From: Patescibacteria group bacterium | GTDB lineage: Bacteria > Patescibacteriota > Microgenomatia > Levybacterales > UBA12049 | Direction: 5' to 3' | DNA length: 64,000 nt | NCBI GenBank assembly: GCA_038063415.1 | Contig: JBBTVD010000006.1 | Coordinates: forward strand, 137,948-201,947 | Position numbers and translations under genes: made by a program | The notes under the pieces: generated by a model | The model's input: the letters and a program-made list of their open reading frames with translations, nothing else | Told to the model about the DNA's origin: nothing | Database searches by the model: none | Part shown: piece by piece, positions 8,171 through 26,825 of the stretch | Numbering within the stretch: the stretch's first letter is position 1 | Layout of the letters: the number at the start of each line of letters is the position of its first letter

Positions 8171-9127
8171 TTACACTTCTTTTCTCCAGTAATCAAGAAT
8201 TGCTTTAAGGCTCTCTTCAAGTGAAATTTCAGGCTTCCAACCAGTCAGATTATGCATCTTACTTGTATCTGCACGGATTTCAGGGACATCACTTGGTCGC
8301 AATTTTGTTGCATCTACTTCAGGATGAATAGCGACCGATGATAAAGAAAGTAAGATATCAAGCACTTCTTGTATTGAATGAGAGACACCTGAACCAATAT
8401 TGTAGACCTCTCCCTCTTTACCTCTTTCGAGGAGTAGGACATATGCTCGTACCATATCGCGAACATCAGTAAAGTCTCGACGAGCCTCTAGGTTGCCAAT
8501 ATGGATGATTGGTTTTTGTTTACCTTTTTCTATATGTGCAATTTGTCTAGCGAAGTCTGAGGTGACAAATCCTGTTTTTTGACGAGGGCCAATATGGTTA
8601 AATGGCCGTACACGGATAAGTGGTAATTGATATGAAAGGTAATACTGTAGTGCTATATAATCCTGGGTTATCTTTGATACAGCATAAGGATTTACTGGAC
8701 GAAATGGCGTTGTTTCTTTTATAGGAATATCTTGCGGATCAAGTCTTCCGTACGTCTCAGCTGAACCGACAATCAGTACTCGTGTCGATACGAACGATTG
8801 CTCACGAAGGACATCAAGAAGATATATTTGTGAATCAATATTTGCATGAAGGGTTTTAATTGGATCCTCAAAACTCTGTGGGACATTTGATTGGGCAGCT
8901 AAGTGATAGACATAATCAGGATGACTCTGTGCAATGGCAACTCGAACTGCTTGTTTATCGGTAAAATCTGCTTTAATGAAATGAATGTTGTCTTTGACTG
9001 GTGAACGATCAAGACTTCCCTCAGAAGAATAGGTTCCGTAGATTTCTGCTTCACCTTTTTGCAACAAGTATTCACACAGATATCCACCAACAAAGCCAGA
9101 GGCCCCAGTAATTAATATGCTTTTCAT
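8171..9127 (-). CDS. rmd: GDP-4-dehydro-6-deoxy-D-mannose reductase (GDP-D-rhamnose synthase, Rmd-type SDR)
   Basis: ITGASGFVGGYL...SAETYG...NPYAVSK...RPFNHIGPRQKTGFVTSDFARQIA...DFTDVRD closely parallels Pseudomonas Rmd. It sits next to gmd. Confidence 0.7.
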   Translation of the reverse strand: MKSILITGASGFVGGYLCEYLLQKGEAEIYGTYSSEGSLDRSPVKDNIHFIKADFTDKQAVRVAIAQSHPDYVYHLAAQSNVPQSFEDPIKTLHANIDSQIYLLDVLREQSFVSTRVLIVGSAETYGRLDPQDIPIKETTPFRPVNPYAVSKITQDYIALQYYLSYQLPLIRVRPFNHIGPRQKTGFVTSDFARQIAHIEKGKQKPIIHIGNLEARRDFTDVRDMVRAYVLLLERGKEGEVYNIGSGVSHSIQEVLDILLSLSSVAIHPEVDATKLRPSDVPEIRADTSKMHNLTGWKPEISLEESLKAILDYWRKEV

Positions 9128-15194: not shown

Positions 15195-15776
15195 TTACTC
15201 TTTCAGGGAAACTGCCCCTTGTCGAAGAATCTCCCACGGCTCAACAGCACAGTTAATAACGGTTGACGCTTCTTTGACAGTACATTCCCCCGGTAGAACA
15301 AAATCGACAAGTTTCATAAGTTCACGATCTAATCCCTCGATGCTATAGGGAGTTTGTTCTCCATGAAAATTTGCTGAAGGTCCAAGAAGAGGCACTCCTA
15401 CCCCCGCAATAAGTGATTGGGCTACCTGATGATTTGGCTGTCGGACACCCAAATTATTTCCTTCCCCCCGTACAAACTCCGACACTTTTTCTTTTTTGCA
15501 AGGAAGAACAATAGTCAGAGCACCTGGCCAATATTTTTCTAGCAAATCTCTTTTTACTTGTTCAGGAATTGGCAACAGATATGCCTGTGCCATAGCAATC
15601 CCACTGACAAGCACGGGTGTTGCTTGTGTTTTCGGACGTCGTCGCAGTCGAAAGAGACGTGTGATAGCCACTTCATTATCCATTCGACAGCCAATGCCAA
15701 AGGCCGTATCCGTGGGAAAAATACCCACACCACCCTGATTAAGAATAGTAATTGCCTGTTGTATTGTAATAACCAT
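15195..15776 (-). CDS. tsaC: L-threonylcarbamoyladenylate synthase (YrdC/Sua5 domain)
   Basis: ILNQGGVGIFPTDTAFGIGC...LRRRPKTQATPVLV...GALTIVLP...SANFHGEQTP are YrdC motifs. The start was moved to the ATG at 15776 (MVITIQQ), because the longer track ORF overlaps the GIY-YIG gene. Confidence 0.75.
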   Translation of the reverse strand: MVITIQQAITILNQGGVGIFPTDTAFGIGCRMDNEVAITRLFRLRRRPKTQATPVLVSGIAMAQAYLLPIPEQVKRDLLEKYWPGALTIVLPCKKEKVSEFVRGEGNNLGVRQPNHQVAQSLIAGVGVPLLGPSANFHGEQTPYSIEGLDRELMKLVDFVLPGECTVKEASTVINCAVEPWEILRQGAVSLKE

Positions 15777-15784
15777 AGTTATAT

Positions 15785-15849
15785 TGTCATCCTGAGCGAG
15801 CGAAGGATCTTGGCTAAAAAAGATTCTTCGGCAACGCCTCAGAATGACA
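15785..15849. repeat. 65-bp palindromic MITE-like element (TGTCATCCTGAG ... CTCAGAATGACA termini) between tsaC and the GIY-YIG gene
   Basis: 12-bp terminal inverted repeats with one mismatch, plus an internal GAAGGATCTT...AAGATTCTTC sub-palindrome. The right terminus encodes the last codons and stop of the GIY-YIG gene. Confidence 0.6.
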
Positions 15850-16123
15850 AAGAGAGATCCTTCCATTCAGAATTTCTAGATTCGATTAGAGAAACTTTTT
15901 TTATTCTTATCCACCCTTTCATTTTCTTTTCACTTGCTATTGCTTCATCTATTAATTGAAATTCTTCAAAGTATACTAACTTAGATACATTATATTTCTT
16001 TGTAAATCCTTCCACCAACTTATTTTTATGCTCATAAACTCTCCTTCTTAAATCATTCGTTACTCCAATATACAGAATCTTATTATTCCAGTTAGTAAGA
16101 ATATAAACCCAATATGATCTCAT
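15839..16123 (-). CDS. GIY-YIG nuclease family protein (UPF0213/YhbQ-like, stand-alone 94 aa)
   Basis: YWVYILTNWNNKILYIGVTNDLRRRVYEHK is the GIY-YIG motif (GIY...YIG...R...E). Confidence 0.75.
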   Translation of the reverse strand: MRSYWVYILTNWNNKILYIGVTNDLRRRVYEHKNKLVEGFTKKYNVSKLVYFEEFQLIDEAIASEKKMKGWIRIKKVSLIESRNSEWKDLSLSF

Positions 16124-16521
16124 CTTTCAACTTCTATAAGATGTACTCGCTCCACATCATGCTGTTTGGCATCAGCCCATTCATACATGATTGCTGGAAT
16201 CTTTCCTCTATTCACAACAGCATGAGGAATATAAGGAGGAAGAGAAAAAAGTGTGAGACCATGGCCTTCTGTTGGTCCCATTTTTTCTTCACGCTTACCT
16301 GTTTCATCTTTCCAGACAAGCACCAAGCCATCAGTTACGGCAAGAAATATTTCACGTCTTGGATGCTTGTGGTTCCCCCCAACCTCACTTGGAGGAATCG
16401 AGACAAGACTGTGGGTAACAGGAGTAAATCCTTCAGGCAGCGACACCTGTTCTATAAAGAGATTCCATAACCCTTGCTTTGTTTTCTTTGTTGGTGTTAT
16501 CCCAATTTTTTCAACGTTCAT
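16120..16521 (-). CDS. cupin domain protein
   Basis: 133 aa with a GNHKHPRREIFLAVTDG...HAVVN two-motif cupin pattern. Confidence 0.5.
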   Translation of the reverse strand: MNVEKIGITPTKKTKQGLWNLFIEQVSLPEGFTPVTHSLVSIPPSEVGGNHKHPRREIFLAVTDGLVLVWKDETGKREEKMGPTEGHGLTLFSLPPYIPHAVVNRGKIPAIMYEWADAKQHDVERVHLIEVER

Positions 16522-16961
16522 AACTTTTCTTCAACAATAATTTCTCGTGTAGATTCATCAATTGGGTGAAACGATAACGCAAGATGTTTCTCGGGAAGTA
16601 AGTCTCCAAGTTTTTCCGGCCATTCGATGACGACAATATTTTGGGTATCCTGCATAATGTCAAAGAGCCCAATCTCTTCAATCTCATCGGTATGTTCAAT
16701 CCGGTACAGATCTACATGGTACAAGAATTTCTTTCTGCTTTTACTAGCATCTGGAAGCATGTACGTTCGTATAATAATAAACGTCGGAGAAATAATAGCC
16801 TGGGTGATACCAAGTCCTTGAGCAAAGCCTTGTGTAAAGGTTGTCTTCCCACTACCCAAATCTCCTTGTAAAGTAATTACTTGGAACTGTTCTTTTTGCT
16901 TAGCAATAGTGCGGGCAAGCTCTTGTGTTTCTTGAACATGTTTTGTCGTATAGGTTTTCAT
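16518..16961 (-). CDS. tsaE: tRNA t6A biosynthesis ATPase TsaE (YjeE)
   Basis: ITLQGDLGSGKTTFTQGFAQGLG...SPTFIII...HVDLYRI. Confidence 0.8.
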   Translation of the reverse strand: MKTYTTKHVQETQELARTIAKQKEQFQVITLQGDLGSGKTTFTQGFAQGLGITQAIISPTFIIIRTYMLPDASKSRKKFLYHVDLYRIEHTDEIEEIGLFDIMQDTQNIVVIEWPEKLGDLLPEKHLALSFHPIDESTREIIVEEKL

Positions 16962-16962
16962 C

Positions 16963-17826
16963 TTAGTTCCCTCTTCTTATTTTATTGTATAGCAGTATAC
17001 CACAACTTACTAGTAATACCGAGCCTGCTAAAAGAAATGGAGCTGCTTTTGGTACAGCACTTTGTATATCTTTAACCAATACTGCAGTTTTTTTCTTGGC
17101 ACTTTGTGATGCTTCCTTTTTCTTGGCAGAGCTTGTACTTACCCCAAGTATGGGTGAAGGATAAAATCTTTTGGAGGTAGCACTCGGTGAAGCTTTTGCT
17201 CCTGGACTGAGTTTTATAAACAATTCATCTGTTGTTTGCGACATATCCTCCTCTTTTATCGTTGGATTTTTTGTCGCATTGAGTTCATTTTCAAGTTTTT
17301 CAGTGGGTGCTGGTTTCTGTGTCGGAATAGGAGTAGGAGTGATGGTAGGTGCTGGCGGATTATTACTTTCTCCTTTTGATGGAGAGGAGAGTATCTGGAA
17401 CTGACCAGTTGCATTAGGATATCTTCCAATGGTTACCTCCACTCCAGAGTCTTGGGTATAGCTATACTGATCAACAATCGTCCCTTCAGCAGTAAAGAGT
17501 ACTACCGTGTCGCTATTGTTGTTAAATAATGAACTTACTTCCATGATAAAGTAATCAGAAGCATAGCCTGCGACACTATTTTCTAAACTTCTTTTTGATC
17601 CATTACCGGCATCATCCATAAAACTCGTATCATCATCGATCCAATAGGTCGTAAGTTGTATATCTGATGGAGCAACTATTTCTACCCATTCTTTATTCTC
17701 GCTACTTGGATGAGTAGAAAACTCATTAATAACGGGAGTAGACAGAGCAAATACCCTAGGTGGAATAAAGAAAACAAATGCAAAAAAGACCCAAATTAAT
17801 CTTTTTAAATTAGCTATATATCTCAT
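16963..17826 (-). CDS. secreted lamin-tail-domain (LTD) protein with Pro/Thr-rich linker and C-terminal membrane anchor
   Basis: Signal peptide, LTD signature (PVINEF...EWVEIV...N), PAPTITPTPIPTQKPAPT linker, and a C-terminal TM plus basic tail. Confidence 0.55.
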   Translation of the reverse strand: MRYIANLKRLIWVFFAFVFFIPPRVFALSTPVINEFSTHPSSENKEWVEIVAPSDIQLTTYWIDDDTSFMDDAGNGSKRSLENSVAGYASDYFIMEVSSLFNNNSDTVVLFTAEGTIVDQYSYTQDSGVEVTIGRYPNATGQFQILSSPSKGESNNPPAPTITPTPIPTQKPAPTEKLENELNATKNPTIKEEDMSQTTDELFIKLSPGAKASPSATSKRFYPSPILGVSTSSAKKKEASQSAKKKTAVLVKDIQSAVPKAAPFLLAGSVLLVSCGILLYNKIRRGN

Positions 17827-17896
17827 ATGATTTAAGTTTAGTATATTTTACTTGGGAGAGTAAAGAGGCTTATTTACTCATATTACACAATGCTCC

Positions 17897-17966
17897 GTCA
17901 TTCTGGCTTGTCCAGAATCCGTCATATGATCCTGGATGCGCTCGTACCTTGCTTACCAGGATGACG
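17897..17966. repeat. palindromic element copy (GTCATTCTGG-CTTGT-CCAGAATC hairpin plus CGTCATATGATCCTGG...CCAGGATGACG inverted repeat)
   Basis: Same TGTCATyC termini family as at 15785. The 23-nt hairpin is identical to 23917-23939. Confidence 0.55.
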
Positions 17967-18032
17967 TTGGCGTAACGTGAATTATTTAGTTTAGCTACAA
18001 AAAGAACGGTGAGGAGTTATACTCGTAGATTA

Positions 18033-19274
18033 TTAGTTATACCAACCGTACTGAAAGATTTGCCCGGTGGAGTAATATTGGTTAAACGAAAGATCAGTAC
18101 CATTCCATGGGTCGTTCATTACATAGCTCCCTCCAGAGCCACTCTTAAGAACGATAAAGTGGGTTCCAAAGGGACCTGCTTTCACCCCTACAATCACTGG
18201 TTCTCCACCCGAAAGCTTGTCATCAATTGCACTTTGGCTAAAGCCCCAGGATGATGAAATTTTGCCACCTGCCCACGGGATTAACATATAAGCAGTATTG
18301 GAGAAGAAGTAGCCACCATTGCTGGTAATATCAGCTGGCGTTACACCTTGACCATGTTTCTTCATAACCATCGCGATTGAGGTAGCAAGACAACCAACTT
18401 CCCATACCTTTTCGCCAGATGAACCCATATTGCCATTCCCCCATCGTTCATCTCGTTGGTTGTAATACCAACCATCTGGACTTGCCTGCGCAGGAAGGAT
18501 TGAAGCACCTGATCCTACACGAGATGTGGCAAACGATTTAAATGAGTTAATCTGTGCTCGCGCTTCTGAAAGCATCCGTTGGTATCTCGCCTCATCGTTT
18601 TTGGTCACAGAGAGTAACTCCTGTTTGGTTGCTTTGTCTTTATCAAGTTGTGCGGTATATCCCTGAAGCTCAGTCTTGAGATCTTCCACTTTTTTCTTCT
18701 TACCTTCTAGCAGTGATTTTTGATTGGCATAATCATTGCGTGCTTGTTGCGTATTATAGAGAAGTTCCTTATCATGAGCTTGCACAATACGAAGATAATT
18801 TGCTTTGGTAATTAAATCTTCTGCATCTCCTGAAGCAAGCAGCATCTGCATTGGACCACCACCGCCATTTTGGTAGGTAGCAACAATCCTATTGAGTAAA
18901 GTCTCAGATACCTTTTCAAGAGAGTCTTCCAGATTTTCCATACGCTTCCCGGCAGAATCAATATCAAGCGTTAGATCCATAATCTGTTGTTCATTGGACT
19001 GTATTTTATATTCGGTCAGTTTAATTTGATTATCCATGGCGTCTATCTGAGAAGAAAGCGAGTTGCCTTGAGAACGCAGGTCAGAGACTTTTCCTTCCAG
19101 TTCCACAATACGATCATTGAGTTCTTTAATTCTTGAGGAATTATCTGTCGTTGCAGGTGTAGTACTTGGAGTTTGTGCGTGAACCGTACCCTGCCACACA
19201 AATGATACGCTGAGTAACAAAAGAAAAATACTTGTAAAGAGAATGTTGTTCTTAGACATAGATAGGTAAAGCAC
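18033..19274 (-). CDS. secreted coiled-coil protein with C-terminal C39-like (papain-fold) cysteine peptidase domain; candidate FtsEX-controlled peptidoglycan hydrolase (PcsB/EnvC analog)
   Basis: Signal peptide and ~250 aa of heptad-rich coiled coil. The C-terminal domain has a catalytic Cys context (WEVGCLATSIAMVMKKHG) and His (GTHFIVL), like the Peptidase_C39_2 family. The gene lies immediately downstream of ftsE-ftsX. Confidence 0.6.
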   Translation of the reverse strand: MLYLSMSKNNILFTSIFLLLLSVSFVWQGTVHAQTPSTTPATTDNSSRIKELNDRIVELEGKVSDLRSQGNSLSSQIDAMDNQIKLTEYKIQSNEQQIMDLTLDIDSAGKRMENLEDSLEKVSETLLNRIVATYQNGGGGPMQMLLASGDAEDLITKANYLRIVQAHDKELLYNTQQARNDYANQKSLLEGKKKKVEDLKTELQGYTAQLDKDKATKQELLSVTKNDEARYQRMLSEARAQINSFKSFATSRVGSGASILPAQASPDGWYYNQRDERWGNGNMGSSGEKVWEVGCLATSIAMVMKKHGQGVTPADITSNGGYFFSNTAYMLIPWAGGKISSSWGFSQSAIDDKLSGGEPVIVGVKAGPFGTHFIVLKSGSGGSYVMNDPWNGTDLSFNQYYSTGQIFQYGWYN

Positions 19275-19289
19275 TGGGATTAGCCCATT

Positions 19290-20156
19290 TTACTTCAAAT
19301 AGCGGAGAACTGCAAGTGAGCTGGCAATGATACCCAAGACAACCGCAATCAGAAGTTCAATTCCGAGCAAGATAAAGAGGAATAAAGGCGATGCGGGAAG
19401 TACTGGTACGCCTTGAAGGAAGGTCTCAAGATATGGAGTCGCGTACAAAAGTCCTGCGGAAGCAAACAGCCAGCCAAAGACAGTCCCAACAACGCCATAG
19501 AAGATCCCTTCAATGACAAAAGGCCAACGGATATACCAATTGGTAGCGCTGAGTAGCTTCATAATCTCAATCTCATCTTTCTTTTGGGCAACCTTAAATC
19601 CAATGACCGTCATCATGATAAAGATAGAAACGAGTGCAAGGGTAGCAATAAGCGTAACACCAATAATACGAATAGCATTCGTCCAAGCCGTTAAGGTTGA
19701 AACGATATCTTTTTGATAGACTACTTCTGAAATTGACGGATTCTGCTTGAGGGTCTCTGAAATTTCATCCAAATCATCAAGTTGTGTGGTCGAAATTTCA
19801 ATCGAAGCTGGTAAGATATCTTCGGTTACTAAATCCAAAAGCAATGGATCTTCTTTATTTTGTTCTTTATAAATTTCAAGTGCTTCTTCTTTGGAAACAT
19901 ATTTCATCGTGGCAACTTTACCAGTTTGATCAAGTGAACTACGAAGCGTATCGACATCTACTTGGGTTGCTTCATCTTTAAAGAAAGCAGTTACCTGAGG
20001 TTTTGATTCAAAGTAACTAATGATCATGGAAGACCCGACAACAATAAAAGCAAAGACTGAAATAGAGAGAAAGGTCAACAGCATAATAAAAATAGCAGCT
20101 ATTGCCTGATAGGGACTTCTTCTGATATGTTTCCAACTGGTTTTTGCGTGTCGCAT
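19290..20156 (-). CDS. ftsX: cell division permease FtsX
   Basis: 288 aa with TM1, a large extracytoplasmic loop and three C-terminal TMs. The N-terminus reads MRHAKTSWKHIRRSPYQAIAAI. Confidence 0.8.
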   Translation of the reverse strand: MRHAKTSWKHIRRSPYQAIAAIFIMLLTFLSISVFAFIVVGSSMIISYFESKPQVTAFFKDEATQVDVDTLRSSLDQTGKVATMKYVSKEEALEIYKEQNKEDPLLLDLVTEDILPASIEISTTQLDDLDEISETLKQNPSISEVVYQKDIVSTLTAWTNAIRIIGVTLIATLALVSIFIMMTVIGFKVAQKKDEIEIMKLLSATNWYIRWPFVIEGIFYGVVGTVFGWLFASAGLLYATPYLETFLQGVPVLPASPLFLFILLGIELLIAVVLGIIASSLAVLRYLK

Positions 20157-20157
20157 A

Positions 20158-20835
20158 TTATCCTTTCTTTTCTCTTTTATCGTCTCGTGTTAAGACGCCT
20201 TTTTCAAGTACCAATACTCGCTTCATCAGACTGTTTACAATATCAGCGTTGTGTGTAGCCATGATAATTGTGGTCCCTGCAGCGTTGATATCCTGTAGCA
20301 GCTTTACAATTTCCCATGATGTTGCATTATCAAGATTGCCGGTTGGCTCGTCAGCAAGTAAGATTTCTGGCGAGAAGGCAAGCGCGCGGGCTATGGCTGC
20401 TCGCTGTAGTTCACCTCCAGAGAGCTGTACGGGAAATTTGTCACTGTGTTCGGATATCCCTACCTGAGCAAGAATCTCATCAACTCGTCTCCGAGCAGCA
20501 TTGTCTTCCATATCTGCTACCTCCAAAGGAAAAAGAACATTTTCAAAAATTGTTCGATCACGAAGTAACTTGAGATCTTGAAAGACTACGCCAACACGCT
20601 TACGGAGATGAGGAATTTTCTTCCGTGAAAGCTTCACCAGATCCCAATCGCCAATCATAACTGAACCAGTCGAGGGAACCATATCCCGGATAAGGAGACG
20701 GAAAAGCGTTGTCTTACCGGAACCAGAAGGCCCTACGAGAAAAACGAATTCACCAGGCTCAATAGCAAAGGAAACATCTTCCAAAGCAGTATTGCCGGTA
20801 GGATATTTTTTGGTTACATTTTCAAATTTAATCAT
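20158..20835 (-). CDS. ftsE: cell division ATP-binding protein FtsE
   Basis: MIKFENVTKKY...GPSGSGKTT...LSGGELQRAAIARAL...LLADEPTGNLD. The start was set at MIKFENV; the longer track ORF overlaps the upstream gene. Confidence 0.85.
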   Translation of the reverse strand: MIKFENVTKKYPTGNTALEDVSFAIEPGEFVFLVGPSGSGKTTLFRLLIRDMVPSTGSVMIGDWDLVKLSRKKIPHLRKRVGVVFQDLKLLRDRTIFENVLFPLEVADMEDNAARRRVDEILAQVGISEHSDKFPVQLSGGELQRAAIARALAFSPEILLADEPTGNLDNATSWEIVKLLQDINAAGTTIIMATHNADIVNSLMKRVLVLEKGVLTRDDKREKKG

Positions 20836-20837
20836 AC

Positions 20838-21299
20838 TTACTCCACTACTTCTACTTTGCCTACATCCATAAGCCAACCAGCTTTTTGCGCTTGCTGTGT
20901 CTCGCCCCACACTTTGATCTTTCTTCCAACGAACAACGATAGGTCAATGACCGAGGAGGTCAGATAGACATTTTGACTTTCTCCGCCTTTGCGTACGAGA
21001 TGATATTGTCCTTCTCCCTCAATACCACCTTCTTGCAAATCTCCCTCAGCCGTGTCGGTAAACGTTGCCCGATCATCTGAGCCATATGTTTGTCCGACAG
21101 CAACCTCTTGCTTGGTTACAGGAGCCTTCTGAACTCCTCCACCAGGCTCTGACATGACGGTAACAAGTGCCCATCCAGAACCGATACCAAGAACTGCCGA
21201 AAGAGCAAGTACTGTCAGAGCCTTTCCGACAGAAACACCTTCTTTTTGTTCTGCAAAGCTATGCATTACCGGCGCTGGTGTTCTTTCTTGCTGTTCCAT
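20838..21299 (-). CDS. hypothetical membrane-anchored protein upstream of ftsE
   Basis: 153 aa, one TM (ALTVLALSAVLGIGSGWALVTV) and a soluble C-terminal domain. No family recognised. Confidence 0.4.
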   Translation of the reverse strand: MEQQERTPAPVMHSFAEQKEGVSVGKALTVLALSAVLGIGSGWALVTVMSEPGGGVQKAPVTKQEVAVGQTYGSDDRATFTDTAEGDLQEGGIEGEGQYHLVRKGGESQNVYLTSSVIDLSLFVGRKIKVWGETQQAQKAGWLMDVGKVEVVE

Positions 21300-21404
21300 G
21301 TGTCATTTCAGTAAGTTATCCCTATGCTTAGTAAAACACATTTTCTTTTTTTTGGCAACCCGACACCTATTGACAGAGGCATGTTCTTCATATAGAGTGA
21401 CTGC

Positions 21405-22250
21405 ATGAATCTCCCAACACTTCTCAGACAAAAACGTACCATTATTATGGGTATTATAAATAGTACCCCTGATTCATTCTCGGATGGTGGAGACTACTAT
21501 AATAATACAGACAAAACACTTAATCGAATCAAAAACATGCTTACACAAGGAGCAGATATTATTGATATTGGGGGCGAATCAACCAGACCAGGCTCTGAAC
21601 TCATCAATAGCGACGAAGAATTACGAAGAGTGCTTCCCCTTATTACCGCTATGAGACAAGCTTTAGGAGAAGAAATTATTATTAGTATTGATACCTGGAA
21701 ACATACCGTGGCACAGGAAGCACTCAGAGCTGGAGCAACGATGATTAATAGTCTGGGTGGATTGCAACTCGATCATAAGCTGGCAGATGTGGTAGCCCAC
21801 TATCACTGCCCTATCGTCATCTATCATATTAAAGGTGAACCCAAAACCATGCAGCAAGGGGAAATAACCTATACTGACGTCATGCAAGCAATTGCAGACT
21901 TTTTTACTGAGCAATTAAGGCTAGGAGAAAAAGCAGGTATCACAAGAAAGAATTTTATTCTTGATCCTGGTATTGGATTTGGCAAGACAGTTGAACAGAA
22001 TCTCGAAGTTATCAAACGATTAAAAGAATTACAGCAGTTTGATCTGCCGGTACTTATTGGTGTTTCACGAAAGAGTCATCTGGCAATGATTTTGCAAGAA
22101 GAGCTTGGAGAAGAAATTCTTCCAAAGGACAGACTTGAAGCATCACTTGCTGAGACTGCTATTGCGATCCAGAACGGAGCACAGATCGTCAGAACACATG
22201 ACGTCTGGGAAACCAAAAAGTTTGTAACAGTCCTTGAGAAATTTTTATAA
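21405..22250 (+). CDS. folP: dihydropteroate synthase
   Basis: IMGIINSTPDSFSDGG...IIDIGGESTRPG...DTWK...DPGIGFGK. Confidence 0.85.
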   Translation: MNLPTLLRQKRTIIMGIINSTPDSFSDGGDYYNNTDKTLNRIKNMLTQGADIIDIGGESTRPGSELINSDEELRRVLPLITAMRQALGEEIIISIDTWKHTVAQEALRAGATMINSLGGLQLDHKLADVVAHYHCPIVIYHIKGEPKTMQQGEITYTDVMQAIADFFTEQLRLGEKAGITRKNFILDPGIGFGKTVEQNLEVIKRLKELQQFDLPVLIGVSRKSHLAMILQEELGEEILPKDRLEASLAETAIAIQNGAQIVRTHDVWETKKFVTVLEKFL

Positions 22251-22252
22251 TT

Positions 22253-22606
22253 ATGGATACTCTTTTTATCAACGATATTACGCTTCCTTGTACCATCGGT
22301 GTTACGGAGTTGGAAAGAAAAGAGAAACAAACCCTTATTATTACTGTGGCACTTTCCGTTGACCTACAAAAGGCAGGAGAAACAGATAATGTAAACGATA
22401 CGGTAAATTATAGTACTCTTTATCAACACATCGTTAAAGTCACAACAGGCTCAAAATTTTTCCTTATGGAGGCTCTCGCTCAACAAATTGCAACCGTTTG
22501 TCTTGAGGATAAACGAGTAAAACAAGCAAAAATTCGTATTGAAAAACCGAAGACGGTACGACTGGCCCGTTCTGCTGCCGTAGAAATAATAAGAACCAAT
22601 GAGTAA
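22253..22606 (+). CDS. folB: dihydroneopterin aldolase
   Basis: 117 aa. [34 protein letters not shown] is the FolB pattern. Confidence 0.75.
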
Positions 22607-23162
22607 TAAAAAAATTGAATTACTAATCACACAACTATTGCAAGAATTGGGAGAAGACCCCTCTCGTGAGGGACTTAAAAAAACACCCAGAAGAGTGAGT
22701 CACATGTTTACCGATCTGACCAAAGGATACACTACTACTCGGGCAACAACCATCAATAAAGCACTTTTTACTGAACAAGTGCACAATATGATTATCCTTC
22801 GAGATATCGAGCTCTATAGTCTGTGCGAACATCACCTCTTACCTTTTTTTGGCAAGTGTCATATCGGCTACATTACCAAAGGCAAAGTAATTGGCGTCAG
22901 TAAAATTGCCAGAATTGTCGATCGATTCGCAAGGCGACTACAAATCCAGGAACGATTAACACAAGAAATAGCCAACGAGCTACAAGAAGTATTACAACCT
23001 TTGGGAGTTGGTGTAGTTATTGAAGCACAGCATCTTTGCATGATGATGCGAGGTGTAGAAAAGCAAAACTCCGTTATGGTGACAGCAGCAGTCCTTGGCA
23101 ATTTCCGAAGCGAACTGGCTACCAGACAAGAATTTATGACGATTATTCACAAAAATATATGA
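22599..23162 (+). CDS. folE: GTP cyclohydrolase I
   Basis: GLKKTPRRV...[20 protein letters not shown]...QERLT...HLCMMMRGV. Confidence 0.85.
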
Positions 23163-23860
23163 AGATTCCAGGCGTTTTTACGACAATTAAGATTACTCAT
23201 GGACAACCGATCTTTCTTGAGAAACATCAAGCAAGACTTATCGCTCATGCCAAACAAGCAGGTTTCCAAATCCATACGACTGCTATAACACAAAAAATAG
23301 TAACATGGTTGCAAGATCATCCGCTAAAAGATTGTGTACTCAAAATAAGTATTTTAGGAGAGTATAAGGAACCAGAAATTCTTTTTGCTACCCGAGAGTT
23401 ACCACAAACCTCAGGTTCAATTCGCCTCATTAGTGTTCCTGATAATCGCGATGTGTCAAAAGTTATCAAAAGTATTGATCGGACAATGTATGAGCAAGCA
23501 AAGCAAATGGCGCAAGCAAAAGGAGCTGATGATGCGATCTTTGAAGAAGATGGATACCTGATCGAATCAACGATCTGTAATCTTTTTTCTCTCAATAAGA
23601 AAGGTGAAATTATTACTCCACCAATTGCTGGTAAAGGGTTAGCAGGAGTTATGCGGGCAAGCATTATGGAAAATTTTCCGGTTCGTGAAGAACCTATCCC
23701 AAAGACAACAAACGGACCATTGGTTTTGACAAATAGTTTACGGGTACAAAAAGCAAGTTCGCTTGATGGAAGAATACTCGCTGACGGAGAAGTATTGTTA
23801 GAAAAACTAAAAATAACAATAAATAAAGCCGAATTTAAATATCTGTCATCCCGTACTTGA
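23159..23860 (+). CDS. pabC: aminodeoxychorismate lyase (class IV PLP aminotransferase fold)
   Basis: MKIPGVFTT...[12 protein letters not shown]...GVMR is a PabC-like pattern. The ATG at 23159 overlaps the folE stop. The track ORF extension 23036-23158 was rejected. The stop codon lies within the terminal repeat of a palindromic element. Confidence 0.6.
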
Positions 23861-23939
23861 TACGGAATCCATGGATTCCCGCTTTTGCTGGAATGACAAT
23901 TCTAAGTTTTTTATTCGTCATTCTGGCTTGTCCAGAATC
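23844..23939. repeat. composite palindromic element (TGTCATCCCG...GGAATGACA with internal 16-bp perfect palindrome GGAATCCATGGATTCC, followed by GTCATTCTGGCTTGTCCAGAATC hairpin)
   Basis: Termini are inverted repeats with one mismatch. The second hairpin is identical to 17897-17919. The element occupies the entire pabC-pabB intergenic region. Confidence 0.55.
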
Positions 23940-23950
23940 TTTTATTTAAA

Positions 23951-25375
23951 ATGCACAATAAAAAATTACCAATCTGGGTCGATCCCAAAGCAGTCTTTAC
24001 TGATCTTTTTGCCGCGGCTCCGGCAGCCTTTTGGCTTGATACAAGTCTGCCCAACGATGAAAAGAGATTCTCCTATATGGGCCTACCCAAAGAAATTATC
24101 TCCTACGACCTTCAAACTAATACAATAACCATACAGAAAGATTCTCACATCACAAAAATAACCCAAGATATCTTTACTTATCTCAATAGGAAGCTACAAC
24201 AACAGGCTTTTGAAGACAAAACACTTCCTTTTCCCTTTATCGGAGGATACGTCGGTTACTTCGGTTATGAATTAAAAGCACTCTGCGGAGTGAAAAACAC
24301 CTACCAGTCTCCTTATCCTGATAGTGTATGGTTCAAGGTTGAGCAATATATTGTCTTTGACCATCAAGAAAAAGAGGTTTACCTTGCTTGTCTAACAAAA
24401 AAAAAGCAACTTGCAGACAAATGGTTCCAGGACATACAAAAAAATTTATTGTCATCCCGAGTACCCCATAGAAAGTCGAGGAATCTCACACCGCAGAGAA
24501 ACTTGTTTGCAACAGACCCCTCCACTCGTTCCTCGGTCGGGATGACATTTTCCCGTGAACAACAACAATATCTTAAGGACATACAAACAGCTAAAAAATA
24601 TCTTAACAAAGGAGAAAGCTATCAAATTTGTCTTACCAATACCCTTACCAAAAAAGTAACAATTGACCCCCTTCTTCTTTATCAAACGCTGAGAAAAAGT
24701 AACCCTGCTCCGTATGCTGCGTATCTTCGCTATAATGATCTCACCGTTCTCTGCTCTTCTCCCGAACAGTTTCTCAAAATTGATGCAGGTGGAACAGTCA
24801 CAACCAAACCAATCAAAGGAACAATAGCTCGTGGTAATACCTTGCAAGAAGATATCTTGCTTAAAAAACAACTCGCAGAAAGCAAAAAGGACTGGTCAGA
24901 GAACGCTATGATTATTGACTTACTACGAAATGATCTGGGGAAAGTATGTACGTTCGGTTCGGTAAAAGTAACAAAACCAATGGCAATAGAGACGTATCAA
25001 ACAGTACATCAACTTGTTTCAACGGTACAGGGCAAATTACATAAGGATACTTCAGTTATTGATTGCATCAAAGCCTGCTTTCCCGGCGGATCAATGACCG
25101 GAGCGCCAAAAACACGAACAATGGAAATTATTGAAAAATTAGAAAAGCAAGCACGAGGCATCTATTCTGGAGCACTTGGATTTCTTAGCTACAATAAAAC
25201 AGCGTCACTGAACATCGTTATCAGGACGATGGTCATGCAAAAAGATGCGGTAAGTATTGGCGCTGGTGGAGCCATTTTGATTGATTCAGATCCAGAGAAA
25301 GAATATGAAGAAATGCTACTCAAAACAACAGCTTTACAAAACGCGATTCAAAATTCTTTAGAGAGTGAGGAATAA
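23951..25375 (+). CDS. pabB: aminodeoxychorismate synthase component I
   Basis: Chorismate-binding domain blocks SYQICLTN, PEQFLKI, TKPIKGT, DLLRNDLG and FPGGSMTGAPK. It carries an in-frame ~33-aa insert at residues ~167-200, encoded by a palindromic element. Confidence 0.8.
   Translation: MHNKKLPIWVDPKAVFTDLFAAAPAAFWLDTSLPNDEKRFSYMGLPKEIISYDLQTNTITIQKDSHITKITQDIFTYLNRKLQQQAFEDKTLPFPFIGGYVGYFGYELKALCGVKNTYQSPYPDSVWFKVEQYIVFDHQEKEVYLACLTKKKQLADKWFQDIQKNLLSSRVPHRKSRNLTPQRNLFATDPSTRSSVGMTFSREQQQYLKDIQTAKKYLNKGESYQICLTNTLTKKVTIDPLLLYQTLRKSNPAPYAAYLRYNDLTVLCSSPEQFLKIDAGGTVTTKPIKGTIARGNTLQEDILLKKQLAESKKDWSENAMIIDLLRNDLGKVCTFGSVKVTKPMAIETYQTVHQLVSTVQGKLHKDTSVIDCIKACFPGGSMTGAPKTRTMEIIEKLEKQARGIYSGALGFLSYNKTASLNIVIRTMVMQKDAVSIGAGGAILIDSDPEKEYEEMLLKTTALQNAIQNSLESEE
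24450..24547. repeat. 98-bp palindromic MITE-like element inserted in-frame inside pabB (perfect 11-bp terminal inverted repeats TGTCATCCCGA / TCGGGATGACA)
   Basis: The termini are exact reverse complements. It belongs to the same terminus family as the elements at 15785 and 23844. The pabB reading frame stays open through it. Confidence 0.6.
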
Positions 25376-25469
25376 ATTTTTTCGCAGTGATCAATAGTGA
25401 AAAAATGATTCGGTAAAGATCTATAAAAGTTACTGCACGTGGAGCACAAGAAAAAATTTCATTCCGAAC
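25365..25469 (+). repeat. copy 1 of a ~100-bp direct repeat (GTGAGGAATAAATTTTTCGCAnTGATCAATAGnGAAAA ... CGTGGAnCAnAAGAAAAAATTTCATTCCGAAC), spanning the pabB stop and the folK upstream region
   Basis: The 5' ~40 nt and 3' ~35 nt are near-identical to copy 2 at 25969-26069, and the centre is divergent. It contains the pabB stop codon. Confidence 0.6.
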
Positions 25470-25514
25470 GACAACGCTAATGACAAAAAGCATCTAAGTC
25501 CCTATAATACCACC

Positions 25515-25979
25515 ATGCACACAATCTATCTCGCTCTTGGATCCAATGTCGGAAAAAAAGCAACATTTCTTACCCAAGCAATTGACAAGCTAAAAAAACA
25601 ACTGCAAAACGTGACGCTAGCAGATTTCTATACAACCCAACCAATGTATGTGGAAGATCAAGAAGAATTTTTAAATACAGTGATGCGGGCGGAGACATCT
25701 CTCTCTCCTGAATCACTCCTTACCTTTGTTAAAGGTCTGGAAAAAGAAATCGGAAGAAAAGAACGATTTCGGAATGGTCCCCGTGAGATTGACATCGACA
25801 TTCTTTTTTATAATGATGTGATTATGCACACAAACTTATTGCAAATTCCTCACCCTCGGATACAGGAACGAAACTTTGTTCTTCGACCTTTTATGGATAT
25901 TGCTCCAGAGTTTATGCATCCAGTGCTAAAAAAAACAATAAAAGAGATTTACAAAAAATTAAATATGCGTGAGGAATAA
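25515..25979 (+). CDS. folK: 2-amino-4-hydroxy-6-hydroxymethyldihydropteridine pyrophosphokinase
   Basis: IYLALGSNVG...REIDIDILFY...RPF is the HPPK pattern. Confidence 0.8.
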   Translation: MHTIYLALGSNVGKKATFLTQAIDKLKKQLQNVTLADFYTTQPMYVEDQEEFLNTVMRAETSLSPESLLTFVKGLEKEIGRKERFRNGPREIDIDILFYNDVIMHTNLLQIPHPRIQERNFVLRPFMDIAPEFMHPVLKKTIKEIYKKLNMREE

Positions 25980-26069
25980 ATTTTTCGCAATGATCAATAG
26001 CGAAAAGAATGGTAGTATGAGTAGTAAAGCATCTACGCGTGGATCATAAGAAAAAATTTCATTCCGAAC
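25969..26069 (+). repeat. copy 2 of the ~100-bp direct repeat, spanning the folK stop and the upstream region of the CofE-like gene
   Basis: See copy 1. It contains the folK stop codon (MREE* versus pabB ESEE*). Confidence 0.6.
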
Positions 26070-26084
26070 AGAATCCTAACGACG

Positions 26085-26825
26085 ATGATTGTAAAACCAT
26101 ACAAAACACATAAAATAACACCAAACGAAAATTTGTTTGAGATTCTCGATCGCTATTTGCCAAAAATTGAGGAAGGCAGTATCGTCGCAATTGCCTCAAA
26201 AATTGTCGGTATTTGTGAAGGGAGAGTGAGCAAAAAAGAATCACAAGAACAAAAGGACGAATTTATCAAACAAGAAGCGGAGTACTACTTACCAGAAAAA
26301 CATATGGAACTCCTACTGACGATTAATCACAATACCCTCGTCGTAAATGCAGGTATCGACGAATCAAATAGCAATGGCTTGCTTTCTCTCTGGCCTAACG
26401 ATCCACAACAAAGTGCCAACGTTATTCGCGAATATCTTAGCAAAAAATATAACATACAACGGATTGGCGTTATCCTAACTGACAGCAAAATAACACCACT
26501 TCGTTGGGGAGTTACCGGCTACATGCTAACACATAGTGGCTTTTTAGCATTAAAAAATTATATTGGCAAACAAGATATCTTTGGACAAACTATGCACGTC
26601 GAGCAAGCAAGCATTGCCGATTCTTTGGCAACGGCTGCAGTAGCTGTTACCGGTGAAGGTGATGAACAACAACCATTGGCAGTAATAACTGATGTTCCTT
26701 TTGTGGAGTTCCAACAACGAAATCCTACACACGAAGAATTGGAAGCACTCAAGATAACTCTTGAAGATGATGTCTATGCACCACTCCTCAAAGCAGTCAT
26801 CTGGCAAAAAGGGAAACAAAAATAG
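26085..26825 (+). CDS. CofE-like (F420-0:gamma-glutamyl ligase family, COG1478) protein; candidate FolC2-type dihydrofolate synthase/folylpolyglutamate ligase
   Basis: 246 aa with the CofE-like layout (IASKIVGICEGR, NAGIDESN, GVILTDSK) in a folate operon. Established knowledge: CofE homologs (FolC2) substitute for FolC in some bacteria. The functional assignment here is inference. Confidence 0.45.
   Translation: MIVKPYKTHKITPNENLFEILDRYLPKIEEGSIVAIASKIVGICEGRVSKKESQEQKDEFIKQEAEYYLPEKHMELLLTINHNTLVVNAGIDESNSNGLLSLWPNDPQQSANVIREYLSKKYNIQRIGVILTDSKITPLRWGVTGYMLTHSGFLALKNYIGKQDIFGQTMHVEQASIADSLATAAVAVTGEGDEQQPLAVITDVPFVEFQQRNPTHEELEALKITLEDDVYAPLLKAVIWQKGKQK

Follow-up and report, generated by a model that had tools for sequence, protein, structure and literature searches.

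Hairpin units in the window

The stretch of DNA analysed here (64,000 nt, hereafter the window) corresponds to positions 137,948 to 201,947 of contig JBBTVD010000006.1 in the assembly GCA_038063415.1 of a Patescibacteria group bacterium; contigs from metagenomes of Hainich groundwater are identical to it. On its two strands, nine short hairpin units were found in four clusters (15785-15849, 17896-17966, 23844-23939 and 24450-24547), all within 9 kb around a gene for a 94-aa single-domain GIY-YIG nuclease (15839-16123, minus strand); no hairpin units were found elsewhere in the 64-kb window. This gene, designated ssn below, very probably encodes a member of the Ssn family of single-stranded DNA nucleases, and the units are very probably of the tagged hairpin class that accompanies this family.

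The repeating entity was a hairpin unit of 23-39 nt, rather than an 'element' of 65-98 nt. Each unit was made up, in order, of a [C/T]GTC tag, a 5-nt arm starting with AT, a variable core, the complementary arm and a C. The core was closed either by tandem G.A pairs (GA...GA) around a mini-hairpin, as in units 1a, 1b, 4a and 4b, or by further Watson-Crick pairs extending the stem, as in the other five units. The first two stem pairs were A-T and T-A in all nine units; the tag was CGTC in three units and TGTC in six, and the 3' C was present in all nine. This C formed the unpaired tail, which read CCA in units 3a and 3b. Continuous stems measured 5-8 bp, with loops of 4-5 nt in units 2a, 3a, 3b and 3c; the remaining units had loops of 10-20 nt or were GA-bracketed.

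In every cluster, a plus-strand unit was followed by a minus-strand unit, with tails facing and tags outward (two units per cluster, three at 23844-23939). The original prediction had listed four palindromic copies with near-perfect terminal inverted repeats beginning TGTCAT. All four copies are present, and the inverted ends do exist, but they arise from two units in inverted order, which gives the appearance of terminal repeats (TGTCAT...ATGACA). The sub-palindrome GGAATCCATGGATTCC (23863-23878), also listed, is real and corresponds to the junction of two tail-to-tail units. Similarly, the 23-nt hairpin GTCATTCTGGCTTGTCCAGAATC, composed of GTCATTCTGG-CTTGT-CCAGAATC, does occur in two identical copies, at 17897-17919 (unit 2a) and 23917-23939 (unit 3c). 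As for the proposed location at gene junctions, three clusters lie between or over gene ends, but the cluster at 24450-24547 lies inside the pabB frame.

The individual units were scored with R1, a covariance model built from 91 distinct units of other genomes only, with none from the window, and run on the 64 kb. Cluster 1 is formed by unit 1a (15785-15809, plus strand), a GA-type unit (T-GTC-ATCCT-GA-GCGAGC-GA-AGGAT-C) that was the best R1 match (38.7 bits, E = 2.9e-07), and by unit 1b (15822-15849, minus strand), of the same type (T-GTC-ATTCT-GA-GGCGTTGCC-GA-AGAAT-C; 34.6 bits, E = 2.8e-06), whose DNA fold comprises the outer stem and an inner GGC/GCC stem. Cluster 2 combines the Watson-Crick-type unit 2a (17896-17919, plus strand; C-GTC-ATTCTGG-CTTGT-CCAGAAT-C, carrying the 23-nt hairpin; E = 0.13) with the long-loop unit 2b (17928-17966, minus strand; C-GTC-ATCCTGG-(20 nt)-CCAGGAT-C), for which R1 gave no match.

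Cluster 3 begins with unit 3a (23844-23869, plus strand; T-GTC-ATCCCGTA-CTTGA-TACGGAAT-C; E = 7.7), which has one C.A mismatch in its stem and overlaps the end of pabC. It is followed by unit 3b (23874-23898, minus strand; T-GTC-ATTCCAGC-AAAA-GCGGGAAT-C; E = 0.25), of all units the nearest to the NTS repeat of Neisseria, and by unit 3c (23916-23939, plus strand; E = 0.011), which repeats the 23-nt hairpin of unit 2a exactly and is terminator-like with its T-rich tail. Both units of cluster 4 are of the GA type and lie inside pabB: unit 4a (24450-24485, plus strand; T-GTC-ATCCC-GA-(17 nt)-GA-GGAAT-C; 21.4 bits, E = 0.005) has one C.A mismatch, and unit 4b (24515-24547, minus strand; T-GTC-ATCCC-GA-(14 nt)-GA-GGGGT-C; E = 0.021) is a degenerate hairpin. 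Overall, the seven best R1 matches were window units (E from 2.9e-07 to 0.25), with only unit 3a ranking low and unit 2b, with its 20-nt loop, being missed; elsewhere in the 64 kb, no match was better than E = 0.39.

The motif GTCATYCYG occurred nine times in the window versus 1.47 ± 1.27 times in dinucleotide shuffles, and none of 100 shuffles reached nine. Eight of these matches fell in the four clusters. The remaining match, at 8917 on the minus strand, falls within coding sequence without any hairpin and was attributed to chance. When folded as single-stranded DNA, Watson-Crick-type units were more stable than shuffles, with z from -3.1 to -5.7 (unit 2a, -5.7 kcal/mol, z = -4.7; unit 3b, z = -3.1; unit 3c, z = -5.7), and the unit pairs folded as long hairpins (z from -2.7 to -5.5). 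No Rfam family was found at the units, either in a scan of the whole window at gathering thresholds or in a scan of 15500-26200 at E <= 1.

The putative ssn gene and its product

The GIY-YIG nuclease gene that had been noted as adjoining one copy is confirmed: Pfam recognised the domain (PF01541, E = 2e-16) over residues 4-73 of the 94-aa protein, with no other real domain, and the stop codon lies inside unit 1b (15822-15849). The tag and arm of this unit, TTG TCA TTC TGA (15839-15849), supply the codons for the C-terminus and the stop (…DLSLSF*; last codons LSF). Several homologues share the DLSLSF ending (alignment A1); thus, in this subgroup, the repeat provides the end of the gene.

The protein, named 'GIY-YIG nuclease family protein [Patescibacteria group bacterium]' by NCBI, belongs to a very large family, with at least 8000 homologues, the best 120 of which are 63-78% identical to it; homologues are 92-96 aa long when their open reading frames (ORFs) are correctly called. 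Only marginal similarity was detected to the UPF0213/YhbQ structures 1zg2 (E = 0.014) and 1ywl (E = 0.36), and no characterised close relative was found among solved structures or in NCBIfam. No second ssn copy was found in the window. In an alignment of 38 homologues, Y7, Y18, R28, H32 and E65 were invariant. Y7, Y18 and E65 are at a constant +1 offset from Y6, Y17 and E64 of the Neisseria meningitidis nuclease SsnA, a protein of equal length (94 aa) in which mutation of these residues abolishes cleavage (PMC11893778). On the basis of this offset in position, Y7, Y18 and E65 appear to be equivalent to the catalytic residues of SsnA.

The two closest relatives of the window nuclease, 78% and 74% identical, are encoded in unrelated contexts, with unit pairs on both sides of the gene. 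In the 74%-identical relative (L205 2641-4549, GCA_964455825.1, CAYWCT010000007.1), the nuclease gene and its unit pairs lie between carA and carB, and a further unit pair is found inside the carA frame of the same contig (…SKLREESQSEGTRFFGFQPQNDK…). Downstream, this contig also carries five half-units (CAGGATGACAGGGGTGAAGGGGT) in tandem. Moreover, several over-extended homologue ORFs (P0031, P0035, P0054, P0074, P0093 and P0110 in alignment A1) carry VILSxxKDL (e.g., VILSGTKDL), CHSE..., DSSLRSE or DPSLRSG. These recurrent extension peptides look like translated flanking units, and would represent a widespread annotation artefact.

Units accompany ssn homologues in other genomes

A scan using one genome per species yielded 80 loci (L005-L084) with homologues 55-71% identical to the window protein. 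The hosts were Gammaproteobacteria, Clostridia, Cyanobacteria, Chloroflexota, Bacteroidota, Patescibacteria, Omnitrophota and others. Such identities across very distant phyla suggest frequent horizontal transfer of ssn together with the repeats.

At these loci, the anchor pattern GTC-AY-NNN-GA-N(3-40)-GA-NNN-RT-C gave 307 matches versus 2 in reversed-sequence controls, and a hairpin-aware detector gave 316 units versus 5 in the control. This detector superseded one that required a stem of at least 6 bp, which had missed GA-type units and scored only 14 of the 80 loci near the gene. A unit was present within 200 nt of the ssn homologue in 57 of the 80 loci and on both sides of it in 43, which replicates the association between units and this gene. 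In the preferred layout, a sense unit closely precedes the gene and an antisense unit closely follows it. Pairings of units in these related loci were tail-to-tail in 63 cases and tag-to-tag in 47.

In the dominant unit of this clade, the outer stem measures 5 bp, a conserved GA stands on either side, and a mini-hairpin of 2 bp closes a short loop, as in GTC-ATTCT-GA-GCGAAGC-GA-AGAAT-C. All three free positions of the arm were Watson-Crick paired in 268 of the 307 units, versus a mean of 52 and a maximum of 72 with shuffled partners, and 12 different arm sequences were present. In a gap-free alignment of the 91 distinct units (A3), 96.5% of cells were paired versus 80.1% after shuffling, with none of 500 shuffles reaching the observed value, and five of the seven pairs changed on both sides, including the two pairs of the inner mini-hairpin. 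The hairpin is kept by compensatory change.

Dispersal of the 23-nt hairpin in metagenomes

The exact 23-mer of units 2a and 3c was found in more than 120 metagenome contigs. Among the matches listed, 134 occurrences were analysed. The base preceding the tag was T in 92, C in 36, A in 6 and G in none, and in the 60 occurrences whose 5' flanks were compared, these flanks were unrelated right up to the tag. An inverted downstream partner was present in 80 of the 134 occurrences, while 54 stood alone. At least five partner types recurred, with variable spacers, including GTCATTCCCGCTTGTCGGGAATC and the long-loop type of unit 2b (GTCATCCTGGTA...), which also trails the 23-mer in other contigs. Sixteen of the 134 occurrences were located inside long open frames. 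Nine of the listed loci also encode ssn, at a distance of 8-21 nt in 9 of 11 cases, and canonical NTS cores (GTCATTCCCGCGAAAGCGGGAAT) occurred among the contigs with the 23-mer. Further clusters were seen on other contigs that match the window in sample and coverage, and the genome therefore probably holds more copies than the nine described here.

Units carried inside pabB and genomic surroundings

The pabB gene (23951-25375, plus strand), encoding component I of aminodeoxychorismate synthase, was identified from its Pfam domains and an alignment with 16 homologues. Units 4a and 4b are in frame and encode residues 167-199 (LSSRVPHRKSRNLTPQRNLFATDPSTRSSVGMT), between the Anth_synt_I_N (9-145) and Chorismate_bind (204-458) domains, with the frame being open for 181 codons before the pair and 275 after it. 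This region is a variable linker, in which most of the 16 homologues are shorter and unrelated. The closest full-length homologue (P0122, 61% identical) exhibits LSSR...SSVGMT at the same place, with a longer middle, as judged by protein comparison only. The pair is thus part of the coding sequence, and is either old or recurrent at this site of pabB; comparable copies have been reported for RPE-4, RPE-6 and other CGTC-tagged repeats (PMC3733652). An apparently split pabB in one contig (L003, ENA ERZ1292660; window ~24371-24389) was traced to a scaffold gap of 10 N, which is an assembly artefact and no strain difference. The best PabB matches (57-62% identical) were mostly HPPK-PabB fusions, one of which is named by NCBI as coming from 'Candidatus Acidoferrales'.

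Clusters 1-3 lie between co-directional genes. The tsaC gene (15195-15779, minus strand) is located beside cluster 1, and other neighbours, recognised by Pfam or ORF reading, encode a cupin, TsaE, a lamin-tail-domain protein and a PcsB-like hydrolase. The genes ftsX, ftsE, folP, folB and folE were named by ORF reading, with matching Pfam families on an identical contig; further neighbours are pabC, pabB, an HPPK gene and an F420-ligase-like gene. Positions 21405-26825 thus hold a complete-looking folate/para-aminobenzoate cluster (folP, folB, folE, pabC, pabB, HPPK and F420-ligase-like genes), punctuated by the repeat clusters.

Another palindromic repeat, about 100 nt long and distinct from these units, was observed at 25366-25470 and 25969-26070, the two copies being about 79% identical. 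They start in the last codons of pabB and then of the HPPK gene, and end before the next gene. Each forms one long imperfect hairpin (GGAATAAATTTTTTCGC...GAAAAAATTTCATTCC), in which seven predicted pairs are kept through two-sided changes, and the arms, GGAAT/ATTCC with GA outside, recall those of the units described above. No Rfam match was found for this repeat, nor any copy in the other loci compared, except in window-identical contigs.

Comparison with known repeats and nucleases

Units of this anatomy have been described as the superfamily of CGTC-tagged repetitive extragenic palindromic (REP) sequences, which have an unpaired CGTC/TGTC tag, stems of 8-9 bp nearly always starting with A-T and T-A, loops of 4-5 nt and a short tail (consensus CCA), and occur mostly as inverted dimers, including heterodimers (Di Nocera 2013, PMC3733652). 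They comprise dRS3 of Neisseria and RPE-4 and RPE-6 of Rickettsia, the latter two exemplifying occasional intragenic, in-frame copies and, unlike GTAG-tagged REPs, they have no associated transposase (PMC3733652). The window units share the tag, the first two stem pairs, the short tail, the inverted dimers, the in-frame copies and, as far as approximate probes of the window show, the lack of a tyrosine transposase, but differ in having stems of 5-8 bp and loops of 4-20 nt; the published repeats were also not linked to a GIY-YIG gene (PMC3733652).

This link comes from Neisseria, where about half of the dRS3 copies are part of a longer oriented motif, NTS (CGTCATTCCCGCGMAVGCGGGAATCYRG), and where NTS-like Ssn-related motifs (SRM) were found to flank homologues of ssnA, a 94-aa GIY-YIG gene (CDD cd10448), in many phyla (Chenal 2025, Nat Commun, PMC11893778). 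SsnA recognises the motif in single-stranded DNA alone, does not bind RNA, and makes its cut a few bases upstream; cleavage is controlled by the three bases that precede the palindrome on its 5' side, and the key base for binding is the C immediately 3' of it (PMC11893778). In N. meningitidis, where NTS is rarely intragenic (2%), SsnA lowers transformation by motif-carrying DNA; the NTS-ssnA-NTS layout has been likened to an insertion sequence or a unit of REP and its transposase, with mobilisation remaining a hypothesis (PMC11893778). The window shares with this system a single-domain GIY-YIG gene of about 94 aa with short flanking hairpins, an HGTC tag on the 5' side of the palindrome and a C directly behind it, the AT start of the stem and the clustering of repeats at genes, and relatives of the window protein show the SRM-ssn-SRM layout. 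Differences concern the units, which have a 5-bp outer stem with a GA...GA mini-hairpin or loops of up to 20 nt, whereas NTS has a continuous stem of 8-9 bp; the one-sided units of the window ssn; the pair in frame inside pabB; and the host, a metagenome-assembled genome of Patescibacteria, a group absent from the text of the 2025 paper (PMC11893778). In sum, the variant and the host differ, but the kind of system does not. The invariant GTC tag and 3' C, both in the window and in the 80 other genomes, coincide with the determinants of cleavage and binding in Neisseria.

Taken together, we estimate at roughly 85% the probability that the units belong to the CGTC/TGTC-tagged REP and NTS/SRM class and that the adjacent gene is a member of the Ssn family. 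Several points weigh against this assignment. The protein was compared with SsnA through the published description of the latter (length and residue positions) only. The published SRM pattern, HGTCWYN(0-2)YYVSBRHN(0-5)WNVSBRGN(0-2)RNCYNB, as printed in the text of the paper (PMC11893778), fits one of the nine window units (unit 3b; match at 23871-23898, minus strand; 0.1 in shuffles) and gave 5 matches versus 2 in controls at the 80 ssn loci, where the GA-bracketed pattern gave 307; identity with the published class consequently rests on shared features, not on its published definition. In addition, several single units are weak under standard DNA energies, with units 1a, 4a and 4b folding no better than shuffles, and the window ssn has units on its 3' side only, its 5' side being occupied by an overlapping cupin gene. 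In our reading, the misfit shows that the pattern, as given in the text, is limited, and does not place the units outside the class. Tandem G.A pairs are, in our judgement, scarcely rewarded by the energy model, so that the low scores of GA-type units are a weak argument against folding.

Alternative explanations

The palindromic family had initially been interpreted as miniature inverted-repeat transposable elements (MITEs), that is, cut-and-paste elements with terminal inverted repeats, moved in trans by a DDE transposase. That a dispersed, small, non-coding palindromic family with a [C/T]GTCAT end exists is borne out, since it occurs above chance and in many unrelated contexts. Near-perfect inverted cluster termini (TGTCATYC...GRATGACA) and the folding of each cluster as one long hairpin also agree with MITEs, and bacterial MITEs such as Correia/NEMIS, RUP and Nezha are likewise palindromic overall, located at gene junctions and occasionally in genes. 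The anatomy, however, does not hold: when the sequence was read at the ends of the four clusters, no target-site duplication or direct repeat was seen, and the entity that repeats is the single tagged hairpin, half of the apparent element, which also occurs alone or in heterodimers with varied partners and spacers. Conservation ends exactly at the tag, and the internal stems co-vary, for which the interior of a MITE would offer no reason. A search of the window for transposases with a crude probe was negative, and we know of no cognate insertion sequence for these repeats. We therefore regard classical MITEs as very improbable. Equally improbable is that these are ordinary REP or REPIN (paired REP) sequences moved by a REP-associated tyrosine transposase (RAYT) of the IS200/IS605 type, the GIY-YIG gene being an unrelated neighbour. 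The tagged hairpin, the inverted doublets, the intergenic location with occasional intragenic copies (PMC3733652) and the small nuclease-type gene flanked by its own repeats are all reminiscent of REP/REPIN-RAYT systems, including bacterial interspersed mosaic elements (BIMEs). The tag is nevertheless [C/T]GTC and not GTAG, no RAYT flanked by CGTC repeats was found by Di Nocera et al. (PMC3733652), and the gene hugged by units in 57 of the 80 loci is ssn. A tblastn search of the window with approximate Y1-transposase/RAYT probes returned nothing (best E = 0.13), which is a weak negative. The two enzyme types also differ in chemistry, RAYT being an HUH tyrosine transposase and GIY-YIG enzymes being hydrolytic nucleases that form no covalent intermediate.

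That the hairpins are conserved chiefly for a role in RNA, whether as intrinsic terminators or as stem-loops that stabilise mRNA, is somewhat less remote but still improbable. Three clusters lie between co-directional genes, unit 3c with its T-rich tail scored as terminator-like, and many REPs have been argued to be transcribed (Di Nocera, PMC3733652). Terminator-like sites in the region were, however, not above shuffles (12 versus 7.9 ± 2.9), and only one of the nine units has a T tail, so that transcription termination, which had been suggested for checking, is not retained as the main function. Relative to transcription the units face both ways, around ssn they are placed symmetrically, one pair lies inside an open frame, and no Rfam match was obtained even at E <= 1. 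Furthermore, the invariant unpaired GTC and 3' C would be useless for termination and match the determinants of Ssn, and SsnA does not bind RNA. The units may still affect transcripts secondarily. Palindromes arising by chance in AT-rich intergenic DNA would be compatible with the short stems (5-8 bp) and with the three units that fold no better than shuffles, but this explanation is practically negligible: none of 100 shuffles reached the observed count, a model trained on foreign sequences recovers the units, and one and the same 23-mer is found at two places here and in more than 120 other contigs. Finally, the original prediction had envisaged the nuclease as a mobilising or homing partner. 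Partnership is upheld by the specific association in 80 genomes and the biochemistry of the family (PMC11893778); homing is not. Homing GIY-YIG enzymes bind DNA through a C-terminal domain and cleave intron-less alleles in double-stranded form (PMC3664794). The window protein shares the catalytic domain of enzymes such as I-TevI and I-BmoI, but is a bare domain of 94 aa with no separate DNA-binding domain and no intron or cognate allele involved, and its family cuts single-stranded DNA only (PMC11893778).

Proposed working and significance

If the units and the nuclease work as an Ssn system, a unit would fold when the DNA becomes single-stranded, during replication, repair or DNA uptake. Ssn would then bind the hairpin, requiring its sequence and the 3' C, and nick the strand a few bases 5' of the GTC tag. 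This model is borrowed from experiments on Neisseria and Wolbachia; in Neisseria, the activity shortens incoming homologous single-stranded DNA and lowers transformation. By analogy, the Patescibacteria Ssn would act on these particular units. Its cellular role may be to restrict incoming or replicating single-stranded DNA, or to shape recombination around the flanked genes, and the SRM-ssn-SRM module may spread as a selfish or a domesticated unit.

A broader proposal would be that the unit pairs are REPIN-like non-autonomous mobile elements, that Ssn is the missing enzyme spreading CGTC REPs, and that the GA-bracketed hairpin is a major overlooked class, from Patescibacteria to Proteobacteria and Clostridia, which settles in frame in essential genes (pabB, carA). 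We hold this to be tentative, and rather unlikely as a whole; to our knowledge, strand transfer by an Ssn protein has never been shown. If it were true, Ssn would be a hydrolytic nuclease doing for CGTC REPs what HUH transposases do for GTAG REPs.

The pairing of such repeats with Ssn has been known since 2025, and what is new here is an example in a groundwater Patescibacteria genome, which extends it to an ultra-small genome. The assignment gives a precise label to a repeat that would otherwise be annotated as a MITE, a terminator or a spurious protein tail. Moreover, censuses based on the published SRM pattern probably undercount the system, with the commonest unit type of this clade being missed. 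Further evidence that such repeats can be accommodated as coding sequence comes from the in-frame pair in pabB and the matching coded ends in its 61%-identical homologue. Each new pair of Ssn and hairpin is a candidate site-specific cutter of single-stranded DNA, for which the units of the window would provide concrete substrates.

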